The position numbers and the translations under genes are program-made. From Candidatus Hadarchaeales archaeon (GTDB lineage Archaea > Hadarchaeota > Hadarchaeia > Hadarchaeales > Hadarchaeaceae), in contig JAWCLG010000003.1 of the NCBI GenBank assembly GCA_038851075.1, positions 40,973 through 104,972 of the forward strand: a stretch of 64,000 nucleotides of DNA, written 5' to 3'. Of this stretch, positions 60,505 through 64,000 are shown piece after piece; the stretch's first letter is position 1; every line of letters starts with the position of its first letter. The notes beneath the pieces are model-generated. The model was not told where the DNA came from, made no database searches, and worked only from the letters and a program-made list of their open reading frames with translations.

Positions 60505-60608
60505 GGGGCCGTGGGGTAGCATGGTCCAGCCTCCCAGCTTGGGGTGCTGGTGACCCGAGAAACCTGTACAGGCCGGGTTCGGGAGTTCAAATCTCGGCGG
60601 CCCCACCA
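60505..60608 (+). tRNA. tRNA-Pro(GGG) with 26-nt intron at 53/54 (60560-60585)
   Basis: GGGGCCG/CGGCCCC-A-CCA; CCAGC-TT GGG GT-GCTGG; excision restores CCGAG-TTCAAAT-CTCGG. Confidence 0.92.
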
Positions 60609-61435: not shown

Positions 61436-61520
61436 GCCGGGGTAGCAAAGCTAGGTAATGCGCACGCCTTGAGAGCGTGTGGCCCTTCGGGCCTCGAGGG
61501 TTCAAATCCCTCCCCCGGCG
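61436..61520 (+). tRNA. tRNA-Ser(TGA), intron-less
   Basis: GCCGGGG/CCCCGGC-G; CACGC-CT TGA GA-GCGTG; long variable arm. Confidence 0.95.
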
Positions 61521-61567: not shown

Positions 61568-61993
61568 ATGAAGCGCTTCGAGTGGATCGAGCATCCATCC
61601 GACATAGGCTTCAGGGCATACGGCCAGGACCTTGCGGAGGCATTCGAAAACGCTGGGCTTGCGCTGTTTGAAATAATGACTGACACATCGAAAGTTGAGC
61701 CAAAAGAGGAGAGGAGGATAGAGCTGGAGGCTGAAGACGAGGGGGCCCTTCTATACGACTGGATCGACAGGCTCCTCTACCTCCACGACTCCGAGCACCT
61801 TCTGATGTCCAAATTTGAAGTTAACATCGCGAAGGGCAAAAAGAGGCTGAGCTTGGCAGGTAGGGCATGGGGGGAACTATTTGATCCGAAGAAGCATGAA
61901 AGCAGGACTGCTGTGAAGGCCATGACGTACCACATGATGGAGATCAAACATGAGAAAGGTATGCACTCAGTACAAGCGGTGGTGGACATATAG
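61568..61993 (+). CDS. Archease (RtcB activator)
   Basis: FEWIEHPSDIG, AFENAG, VKAMTYH, C-terminal VDI; directly upstream of rtcB. Confidence 0.95.
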   Translation: MKRFEWIEHPSDIGFRAYGQDLAEAFENAGLALFEIMTDTSKVEPKEERRIELEAEDEGALLYDWIDRLLYLHDSEHLLMSKFEVNIAKGKKRLSLAGRAWGELFDPKKHESRTAVKAMTYHMMEIKHEKGMHSVQAVVDI

Positions 61994-62116: not shown

Positions 62117-64000
62117 ATGATATCGCTAGGTGGAATAAAGCAAATCGACGAGGTCCGCTGGGAGATTCCACAGGATTACAAGCGCGGCATGAGAGTTCCA
62201 GCGCGCATCTACGCTGACGCCGATATGCTGAACGAGATGCGCAAAGACCTAACGCTCGAACAGGCCGCAAATGTGAGCTTCCTGCAGGGCATCTATAAGT
62301 ATTCGATAACACTCCCCGATGGGCATCAGGGCTATATGAGCCATGCTTAGGCATGCTCAGGCTAAGGATTCCCCATCGGTGGAGTTGCCGCCACAGATGC
62401 CGAAACTGGCGTCATCAGTCCTGGGGGAGTCGGGTATGATATCAACTGCCTTCCGGGAAATAGCAAGGTTTTGACATCCCTCGGGTACCGAACCAAAATC
62501 GAAAAAGTTTGCCTGGGAACCCGTGTGGCCGTACTAAATCAAAACCACGCCAAGCCTGCTGAAGTTATTTTGACACTCAACAGGGATGAGCATACCCTAC
62601 AAAAAATCAAGACAGGTGCGGGGTTCGAATTGATTTCCACCTTGGACCATCCAATTCTGACCAGAGAAGGCATGAAAGAGGCCTGGAAACTCTCATTAGG
62701 CGAAGAGGTTGGGATTCACCCATTTGAAGGCGTTGAGTATGAAGATCCGAAGGAATTTGAGATCTTATCGGAAAAAAACTTCAGGGGAGCTGTCATAGAG
62801 GAGTTAAAGAAACGGAAGTTGCTGCCCCTCACTTCTAAAAACGAGAAGCTGCCGTATATCGTAAAAATATTCGGTTACCTGCTGGGAGACGGAGTCATCT
62901 ACGACAAATATGTGGTGTTTTACGGCGAGAGGGCTGATTTGGAGGATATATCAAGAGACATACAAATTTTGGGATATACGGGCGGAGTATATGAAAGACG
63001 GCGGGAACACCACGTCAAAGGATACAACTTCACCAGAAACGAGACCTTTTTGAAGGTTTCTGCCAAGAGCCTTGCCGAACTTATGTGGGCGCTTGGTTAC
63101 CCAAGAGGAAACAAAACTAAAACAGATTTCTGTGTTCCAGCATGGCTGCTTAAACTGCCAAAGTGGCTGAAAAGACTCTTTTTGGCTGCATATTTCGGGG
63201 CTGAGATGTCTAAACCAAAAACTATGAACGGCTACAACTTCTACATGCCAGAGATAAAACTATCTAAAAAGAAAGGAAATGAAAAGAACGGTCTAGAGTT
63301 TCTGCAGCAGCTACAGGAGATGCTCAAAGAGTTTGGTGTGGATTCAACTCTTTCCATAGCCGAGGAAACAGGGAATAGCGTGAGTTTTAGAGTTTTAATT
63401 AAAGGAGATCTTGAAAATCTAACCAAACTGTGGTCCCAAGTAGGATACGAATACAATAGGAAACGAAGAGAACTCGCCATGGCAGCCGTCGTCTATCTAA
63501 AATTAAAACAGGCCATCATCAACGAAAGGGAGCGCCTGAGGGAGAAAATACGGGAAGAACGTGGAAAGAGCGGTGACAACGAGCTATTGCGAAAATATCG
63601 AGATACTATCAACAAAAAATTCGTTGAAAGTCTGTACGAGAAAACTAAAGGGGCAAGGCCACCCACGCGCTACATGAAATTTGAAGAGTTCGTGAAGAGG
63701 TTTTCGGAGGGGGAAATTGTTTACGATAGAATCGTGCAGATCGAGAGGCTCGAACATCGGGGCCGTGTGTATGACTTCACGGTCGATAATGAGAACCACA
63801 ACTTCGTTGCGGATTCTTTTGTGGTTTCGAACTGTGGCGTACGCCTGCTGCGGACAGATTTGAACTCCTCCGACGTTAAGCCAAAACTACGCCAGCTCGT
63901 CGAAACCCTCTTCCGAAACGTCCCTTCCGGGCTCGGAAGCACCGGACACATGAAACTCACACCGGCCCAACTCGATCAGGTACTGGAGAACGGGGCGAAA
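62117..64000 (+). CDS. rtcB: tRNA-splicing ligase RtcB, interrupted by a 30-nt putative intron and an intein; 3' end beyond window
   Basis: MRVPARIYA...LPDGHQGY (to 62335) | GFPIGGVAA...SPGGVGYDIN (62366-62446) | intein | CGVRLLRT...PSGLGS. Confidence 0.93.
62336..62365 (+). other. Putative BHB-type mRNA intron in rtcB
   Basis: ATGAGCCATGCTTAGGCATGCTCAGGCTAA; in-frame TAG and TAA; internal hairpin; GGCU/GGCU central helix with AU^A and AA^G bulges. Confidence 0.8.
62447..63832 (+). mobile_element. Intein (462 aa) with LAGLIDADG-type homing endonuclease, inserted at RtcB DIN|CGVR
   Basis: Block A CLPGNSKVLT, block B TLDHPILT, IFGYLLGDG and FLAAYFGAE motifs, block F/G VYDFTV...HNFVADSFVVSN/C. 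Confidence 0.93.

Follow-up and report, generated by a model that had tools for sequence, protein, structure and literature searches.

In eukaryotes, the HAC1 and XBP1 messenger RNAs (mRNAs) are spliced independently of the spliceosome, in an Ire1-dependent reaction in which two structured sites are cut. In archaea, RtcB is the tRNA-splicing ligase and is activated by archease. An intron of the bulge-helix-bulge (BHB) type in the cbf5 gene of Crenarchaeota is also said to have been reported by Watanabe in 2002 and by Yoshinari in 2006. Yokobori 2009 (PMC2738675) describes such an intron in the cbf5 pre-mRNA of Crenarchaeota, a paper of 2025 cites only the cbf5 trio for archaeal pre-mRNA introns, and the role of RtcB in Ire1-type mRNA splicing is mentioned in PMC8718801. 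The present analysis concerns the rtcB gene itself, at the end of a 64,000-nucleotide (nt) stretch of DNA from Candidatus Hadarchaeales archaeon (assembly GCA_038851075.1, contig JAWCLG010000003.1, positions 40,973 to 104,972), called the window hereafter. This gene is interrupted by 30 nt which, judging from sequence comparison and predicted folding, very probably constitute a genuine BHB intron of the rtcB pre-mRNA that would be spliced out.

The interrupted rtcB resembles cbf5 in being the gene of an RNA-processing enzyme, with a short BHB-type intron, dependence on the tRNA splicing machinery (predicted for rtcB) and a patchy pattern of gain and loss. It differs, however, in that the host gene encodes the ligase of the pathway, that the hosts are Hadarchaeota and Aenigmatarchaeota (DPANN) instead of Crenarchaeota, that the splicing endonuclease EndA of these lineages is a single alpha4-type subunit and not the heterotetramer linked to cbf5 splicing, and that the introns are very small (16-33 nt) and located at three sites, with up to two per gene. 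The archaeal tRNA and rRNA BHB introns, including their relaxed forms (HBh'/hBH) at non-canonical positions, share with it the 4-bp central helix, the 3-nt bulges (the 3' one relaxed in the window), the predicted cut after the second base of each bulge and the presumed enzymes; the size range is that of tRNA mini-introns. In contrast to them, the rtcB substrate is an mRNA in which the exon helices are made of codons and the splicing sets the reading frame. As predicted for rtcB, the HAC1/XBP1 system is free of the spliceosome, relies on a protein endonuclease cutting structured mRNA sites, uses RtcB for ligation and changes the frame. The rtcB case, however, involves neither Ire1 nor a stress sensor, the cut structure is a BHB and not a pair of 7-nt loops, and the spliced mRNA is that of the ligase. 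By this analogy, the rtcB intron would work like the HAC1/XBP1 system but is no member of it. The original prediction on this DNA supposed that an intron in rtcB was undescribed, and indeed no earlier description was found in full-text literature searches, in which subscription journals were thinly covered. The novelty lies in the self-referential host gene, the host phyla, an endonuclease type other than that of cbf5, the very small introns and the several sites per gene.

The rtcB insert and its predicted fold

The insert, at positions 62336-62365 of the window, parts in frame the conserved ...PDGHQGY from GFPIGG... in the translation of rtcB. Two in-frame stops are found within it, TAG at 62348-62350 and TAA at 62363-62365. 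Read unspliced, the open reading frame (ORF) extends from 62117 to 62350 and yields 77 amino acids (aa) only; downstream of the insert, the frame is the same as in exon 1 and stays open from 62366 through the window end. The letters, the frame and the 77-aa stub are all as originally predicted.

In the unconstrained minimum free energy (MFE) fold of RNA 62310-62390, the insert forms an inner hairpin (62337-62341 paired with 62355-62359, 62343-62346 with 62351-62354, loop 62347-62350) resting on a 4-bp central helix, GGCU/GGCU (62330-62333 with 62360-62363). This helix is flanked by two unpaired triplets, the 5' bulge 62334-62336 (AU^A, the caret marking here and below a cut or insertion point) and the 3' triplet 62364-62366 (AA^G). 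Farther out, AUC/GAU (62325-62327 with 62367-62369) is followed by a long outer helix (62316-62323 with 62372-62379, 62311-62315 with 62381-62385), whose longer segment pairs the P-D-G codons with the P-I-G codons. The fold energy is -40.5 kcal/mol, versus -26.3 +/- 3.5 in dinucleotide shuffles (z = -4.03), and none of 200 shuffles was as stable. The inner hairpin, the central helix, the bulges and AUC/GAU of the original prediction are thus present in the free fold. Its 3' bulge, however, has to be amended: A62328 and G62329 are unpaired and face the AAG triplet in a 3x2 internal loop, and for this reason the motif is a relaxed, not a strict, BHB in the lineage of the window. When each bulge is cut after its second base, the exons join as TAT^GGA, which gives back GHQGY-GFPIGG as had been claimed; the predicted spliced junction reads ...CAGGGCTAT^GGATTCCCC.... 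No Rfam family covers the intron, the only matches being a tRNA at 61436-61520 and one chance long non-coding RNA.

The following course of events can be proposed. As the fold and the covariation described below show, pairing between the P-D-G-H codons and the F-P-I-G-G codons of the exons presents GGCU/GGCU, AU^A and AA^G atop the intron hairpin. According to the cut rule, EndA would cleave after U62335 and after A62365; in this lineage, the enzyme would be a single alpha4-type subunit of about 180 aa, a type linked by the literature to relaxed substrates. RtcB and archease would then rejoin the two halves, producing TAT^GGA and ...GHQGY-GFPIGG..., and the translated protein would still have to shed the intein located further downstream.

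Probable same-site introns in two phyla

The presence of the insert in DNA, which the original prediction had left to be checked, was confirmed in independently assembled contigs of three runs from two studies, where it is found ungapped (X1 record 6, X2 record 12, X4 record 24). Among the DNA contigs of the runs compared with the window, none at >=90% likeness showed the exons joined without the intron. The runs that hold the window sequence are hot-spring metagenomes.

Of the 65 species genomes in the order to which the window belongs, all of which were searched with the RtcB family model, 62 gave a match. In 6 of these 62 genomes, rtcB is interrupted at the same site: the assembly of the window itself (G000), G003, G004, G016, G022 and G042, all of one family and distributed over four genera. 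The insert measures 30 nt in G016 and G004 and 29 nt in G022, G003 and G042; the latter length shifts the frame, so that only removal at the RNA level would yield RtcB. In these five relatives (completeness 76-92%), the interrupted gene is the sole rtcB found and it aligns full-length with intact RtcB. The same-site inserts with compensatory changes that an alignment of relatives had been expected to reveal are therefore present. The rtcB gene of G042 holds a second intron (L043, contig C92, gene strand), 31 nt long and located at GYDI^NC, with the helix ACAU/GUGU and the bulges AAU and UAA; it lies 3 nt upstream of the insertion point used by inteins. An apparent second interruption in G022 (L033, C1, about 100 nt before the gene end) was rejected, since a run of 10 N simulates the frame break there. 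The cbf5 gene of the window's own assembly is uninterrupted, and none of the 43 cbf5 matches in genomes of the same family contains stops, which contradicts the idea that the interrupted rtcB is a general artefact of metagenome-assembled genomes, as far as sequence comparison can tell.

Metagenome contigs were searched with a pattern that fixes the 3' junction only, and thereby also the 3' strand of the central helix. Of the 16 contigs found, 13 are of Hadarchaeota type, with introns of 29 or 30 nt. Covariation was studied in 17 distinct sequences of this type (alignment A1). The proposed pairs are formed in 92.2% of the cells, versus 28-62% when the partners are slid by 1-3 columns. Three pairs of the inner helix are altered on both sides, 34:56 (C-G in 12 sequences, U-A in 5), 36:54 (A-U in 12, G-C in 2, G-U in 1) and 37:53, for a total of 12 cells with double changes. 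The observed covariation score was reached by none of 500 shuffles, a statistic that overstates the support because the 17 sequences are related. The apical hairpin is swapped wholesale and nevertheless remains paired (CAUGC/GCAUG, CGUGC/GCACG, GCGUG/CACGC, ACACG/CGUGU), and 16 of the 17 sequences retain the BHB core when folded freely to the MFE.

The exons are also fitted to the structure. Although the pattern left the Gly-Tyr codons preceding the intron free, every one of the 25 true pattern hits reads GGC-TAT there, a codon pair shown by only 3 of the 35 distinct junctions without intron in the order. Likewise, pairing between the P-D-G codons and the P-I-G codons reaches, on average, 8.3 of 9 positions in the 17 intron-bearing genes versus 5.8 of 9 in the 35 intron-less ones. 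These two codon triplets are able to be exact reverse complements, and it is proposed that introns recur at this site because such natural complements offer a ready-made outer helix. Altogether, the structural and splicing part of the BHB interpretation is strongly supported, at the sequence level, by the same-site inserts, the frameshifting 29-nt variants, the compensatory changes and the constraint on exon codons.

The same 3'-junction pattern also matched four genome records and one metagenome contig of Aenigmatarchaeota type. Their introns are only 16-18 nt long, occupy the identical position (PDMHFGY^...^GFPIGG) and display the same central helix; two further contigs carry a 30-nt form. 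By eye, a strict BHB is possible in these mini-introns (UC/GA after the bulge), whereas the MFE fold favours a 2-nt bulge and gives the 3-nt form in none of four. The loose ends of runs X2 and X3 at window positions 62360 and 62391 belong to this kind of mini-intron and match the window over the shared 3' junction only. Since the Aenigmatarchaeota-type intron turns up in two runs that hold the window, both intron-bearing lineages share springs.

In a sample of 151 genomes of the Aenigmatarchaeota class, rtcB was found in 141, and it is interrupted in at least 14 of these (8 matches with stops and 6 more that are frame-broken in the same region). The introns measure 16-33 nt and lie at the site of the window and at two nearby ones. 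Three insertion places can therefore be distinguished: A' after PDGH, A at GY^GF and B at G[FY]DI^NC. The BHB geometry and the cut rule alone restore motif and frame in nine further introns, six at site A (L084, L090, L093, L094, L096, L043) and three at site B (L083, L089, L043), extending to other variants what the rule achieves in the window. Their central helices are unrelated (GGCU/GGCC, AAGG/CCUU, GGGG/CCCC, UAGG/CCUA, CGAU/GUCG, ACAU/GUGU). Site B is used in Aenigmatarchaeota as well, by L083 and L089 and probably by L088 and L096. No rtcB besides the intron-bearing one was found in G065, a genome of this class. At site A' (L085-L089, L091, L092), the strict BHB script gave no solution; by eye, L085 fits a BHB (GGCC/GGCU, bulges AUA and AAU, one inner mismatch), L087 forms three of four central pairs only, and in the remaining loci a hairpin insert is visible but the splice sites are not fixed. 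Three script hits at site B, in L084 (44 nt), L086 (41 nt) and L093 (85 nt), were discarded as spurious: the junction falls at the motif edge and coding sequence would be lost. In L095 (G196), the interruption resembles an intein, and L097 is cut by a contig end.

Gene layout, splicing machinery and the second rtcB

The features of the locus are collected in Table 1. Contig C3, whose end forms the window, belongs to an assembly of 1.0 Mb and 29 contigs that is 88% complete. The gene directly upstream of rtcB is archease, as had been stated. The intein of rtcB shows the full set of features of such elements, with intact termini in the translation (Cys1...Asn462, then Cys+1), and the rtcB product would need RNA splicing plus protein splicing. 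Inteins at GYDIN^C, in the form of long open frames, are frequent both in the Hadarchaeota order and in the Aenigmatarchaeota class. The RtcB of Pyrococcus reportedly contains an intein too. An intein at GYDIN^C is shared with many relatives; what differs here is the extra interruption at the RNA level, 81 nt upstream.

Table 1. Position of the rtcB gene parts and of the upstream gene in the window
Feature	Coordinates	Strand	Evidence and remarks
Archease gene (activator of RtcB)	61568..61993	+	directly upstream of rtcB; 141-aa ORF; PF01951 Archease, E 2.9e-47, 136/136 profile positions
rtcB exon 1	62117..62335	+	73 codons, end ...PDGHQGY; PF01139 match with stops inside; 5' splice site predicted by the BHB cut rule to follow U62335
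Putative BHB-type intron, 30 nt, in-frame TAG and TAA	62336..62365	+	homologous same-site inserts in 5 relatives and 13 metagenome contigs
BHB core	62330..62363	+	MFE fold; central helix invariant among homologues
Exonic outer helices clamping the motif	62311..62385	+	fold and alignment (helix 1: 91.2% of cells paired)
rtcB exon 2, as far as the intein (GFPIGG...GVGYDIN)	62366..62446	+	translation, frame of exon 1
Intein, 462 aa, LAGLIDADG homing-endonuclease domain, at GYDIN^C	62447..63832	+	PF14890 Intein_splicing, E 2e-13; PF14528 LAGLIDADG_3, E 6.7e-07
Start of the rtcB C-extein, cut by the contig end	63833..64000	+	last ~100 nt identical to contig C8, where the remainder of an rtcB gene follows

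The genome is rich in tRNA introns, in agreement with the original prediction: ARAGORN predicts them in 18 of the 40 tRNA genes of the assembly, some being 13-15 nt long. EndA was detected, once or twice, in 23 of the 25 genomes searched (that of the window and 24 relatives), including the carriers G003 and G004, and its reading frame of about 175-240 aa in the relatives is of alpha4-like size. According to Kaneta et al. (2018, PMC5829648), an alpha4 EndA with an extra L3 loop occurs in Hadesarchaea and several DPANN lineages and is linked to a marked rise in disrupted tRNA genes; the rtcB introns of the present analysis come from these two groups.

The 1.0 Mb of the genome were scanned for other BHB introns, with the BHB core required in the MFE fold, 25-nt flanks and at least 60 open codons on each side, a setting that can miss introns. 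From 31,994 structural candidates, 1,690 of which fuse ORFs, two retained the BHB core in the MFE fold, rtcB being one of them. The other survivor (G000:C9:33990, + strand, 62 nt) is weak (-26.6 kcal/mol), with flanking frames of 138 and 104 codons, and is probably due to chance. A 29-nt candidate at C1:65732, between frames of 738 and 642 codons, proved to be an ordinary overlapping gene pair, one member T2SSE-like and the other without family.

The bin also contains an intact rtcB, devoid of intron and intein, at C8:40403-41710. The end of C8 is syntenic with the end of the window (archease, tRNA-Ser, rtcB), with 77.6% nt identity over 2.6 kb; C3 and C8 overlap over about 4.6 kb with 78-88% identity, beyond which the two sequences coincide. 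Unitig depth in run X1 is 9.25 over the intein-bearing gene and 17.5 past the join, and a contig of run X3 links C8-type sequence to the same downstream words. Because of the synteny, the identical flank and the approximate doubling of depth, these are taken as two alleles of one locus or as co-binned sister strains; the second rtcB fits an alternative allele or a sister-strain copy and not a paralogue, on the evidence of the assembled sequences. The two proteins are also mutual nearest neighbours on a quick RtcB tree. Over 155 aligned codons, the interrupted and intact alleles show 75 identical codons, 62 synonymous and 18 non-synonymous differences, a ratio which places the interrupted allele under purifying selection and not in decay. 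A second intact rtcB beside a decaying interrupted one had been named from the start as the mark of a pseudogene; the intact copy does exist, but it looks allelic and its interrupted counterpart is not decaying.

Synteny with 68-86% nt identity links many contig pairs of the bin (C3/C8, C3/C21, C20/C23, C6/C14, C24/C25, C15/C27 and others), and the bin mixes two related haplotypes or strains despite a contamination estimate of 0.21%. The tRNA-Pro(GGG) gene of the window (60505-60608, C3:101477-101580) carries a 26-nt insert in the T-arm region that is missing from its counterpart at C8:43371-43445 and that probably represents a BHB intron, non-canonical in its position. ARAGORN miscalls this C3 gene as a tRNA-Gln with intron, and Rfam gives no match at E<=1.

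Weight of the evidence and significance

Several observations weigh against a spliced BHB intron. Nine runs hold the locus and none of them is on record as RNA; neither the spliced junction nor the excised intron was seen. EndA was not found in the assembly of the window with the Pfam model or by tblastn with the EndA of two relatives, a result that does not show its absence because the assembly is incomplete. In the lineage of the window, the 3' site departs from the strict 3-nt bulge (3 nt opposite 2 nt); cleavage of such a relaxed form is presumed from a correlation in the literature, the alpha4 enzymes being classically strict. The intact rtcB of the bin, if present in the same cell, would make the interrupted copy dispensable. 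Finally, the 17 aligned sequences are kin and their central helix never varies, its 3' strand being fixed by the search pattern.

If the intron is spliced by EndA and RtcB, new RtcB requires existing RtcB or another 3'-P/5'-OH ligase. This dependence, which follows logically from splicing, would be autocatalytic rather than homeostatic and would be passed on through the cytoplasm. It could be argued that the intron is kept precisely as a regulatory switch, coupling the supply of RtcB to EndA or acting in a bistable way, like Ire1-XBP1/HAC1. Such a switch, which builds on splicing, would profit from the need for pre-existing ligase inherent in the mechanism, from the recurrence of rtcB introns in two phyla and at three nearby sites, from the exon codons fitted to the structure and from the position of rtcB as the sole strong mRNA candidate in the genome-wide scan, cbf5, the classical host gene, being uninterrupted in 43 of 43 family matches. 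The distribution of the intron is patchy, however: it is present in 6 of the 62 order genomes with rtcB, and within the genus of G009, three other species possess it but G009 does not. In the RtcB tree (48 rows, LG+G4, support by Shimodaira-Hasegawa-like approximate likelihood-ratio test only, rows with <300 filled columns dropped except the window allele with 141 columns), the genes with an intron are not gathered in a single clade, with weak support among them, and an intron-less allele coexists in the same population. The feedback would moreover be positive, a shortage of ligase leading to less ligase being made, which is a liability and not a homeostatic control. Neither an alternative fold nor a ligand site, nor any other condition-dependent element, was seen at the rtcB intron, which also counts against a switch. 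This explanation is consequently judged unlikely. Since the intron is scattered among close relatives, a tolerated or selfish element fits better than a switch, and the most likely view is that of a tolerated mini-intron of selfish type, to which the exons have adapted.

A broader proposal is that rtcB constitutes a specific and recurrent target of BHB mini-introns across distant phyla because the ligase acts on its own message; three sites lie within 30 codons, and a gene can hold up to two introns and an intein. This proposal is put forward as a doubtful one. It exists in two versions: either introns enter by reversed cut-and-join reactions on the mRNA beside nascent RtcB, or the requirement of RtcB for RtcB serves the cell, by providing a heritable on/off state or by making ligase synthesis conditional on a working endonuclease.

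A different reason for persistence would be protection against homing, the introns breaking DNA targets, above all that of the intein endonuclease at GYDIN^C. Site B lies 3 nt from the intein insertion point, inteins at this place are common in both groups, and the site-B carriers inspected (G042, G089, G081, G139, G150) have normal rtcB frames of 428-519 aa, and thus no intein. Five intein-less carriers are nevertheless expected by chance at intein frequencies of roughly 10-20%, and the site-A intron of the window, 81 nt away from the intein site, coexists with an intein here and in G003 and is not explicable in this way. Protection against homing is accordingly regarded as improbable.

It is still less credible that the insert represents mere damage to a dead or dying allele, the C8 copy being the functional one. 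An intact rtcB is indeed present in the bin, and the contig stops within the interrupted gene, whose 3' part is therefore unseen on the same contig. But different genera and different studies share the same-site insert, with compensatory changes, no rtcB other than the interrupted one was found in five relatives and in G065, synonymous changes far exceed non-synonymous ones, and the intein motifs are intact. Ribosomal recoding, either a translational bypass of the 30 nt of the phage T4 gene 60 type or stop-codon read-through, can practically be dismissed despite the stable hairpin within the gap and the GGCUA at both ends: matching take-off and landing codons are lacking (UAA follows the second GGC, and the Tyr codon UAU has no landing codon), the gaps of 16-33 nt, with or without frameshift and with differing flanks at three sites, all obey the BHB geometry, and read-through cannot mend the 29-nt and 31-nt forms.

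A BHB intron remains the preferred interpretation of the rtcB insert. Archaeal introns in protein-coding genes are still cited as essentially one case, that of cbf5, to which rtcB adds two other phyla and sizes down to 16 nt. The ability of the P-D-G and P-I-G codons to pre-form an outer helix provides a testable idea on intron placement. Should splicing occur as predicted, mRNA splicing by the tRNA machinery would reach lineages with a single-subunit endonuclease, and the rtcB introns would offer a natural minimal substrate for this enzyme. The gene would then be self-dependent, the ligase being needed to make the ligase before the intein is removed, and gene callers would mis-annotate an essential gene as fragments in the intron-bearing genomes. 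If rtcB were moreover a recurrent target of mini-introns, it would represent the first archaeal enzyme controlling its own expression through unconventional mRNA splicing, and the first archaeal mRNA introns outside Crenarchaeota that rely on an alpha4-type endonuclease.

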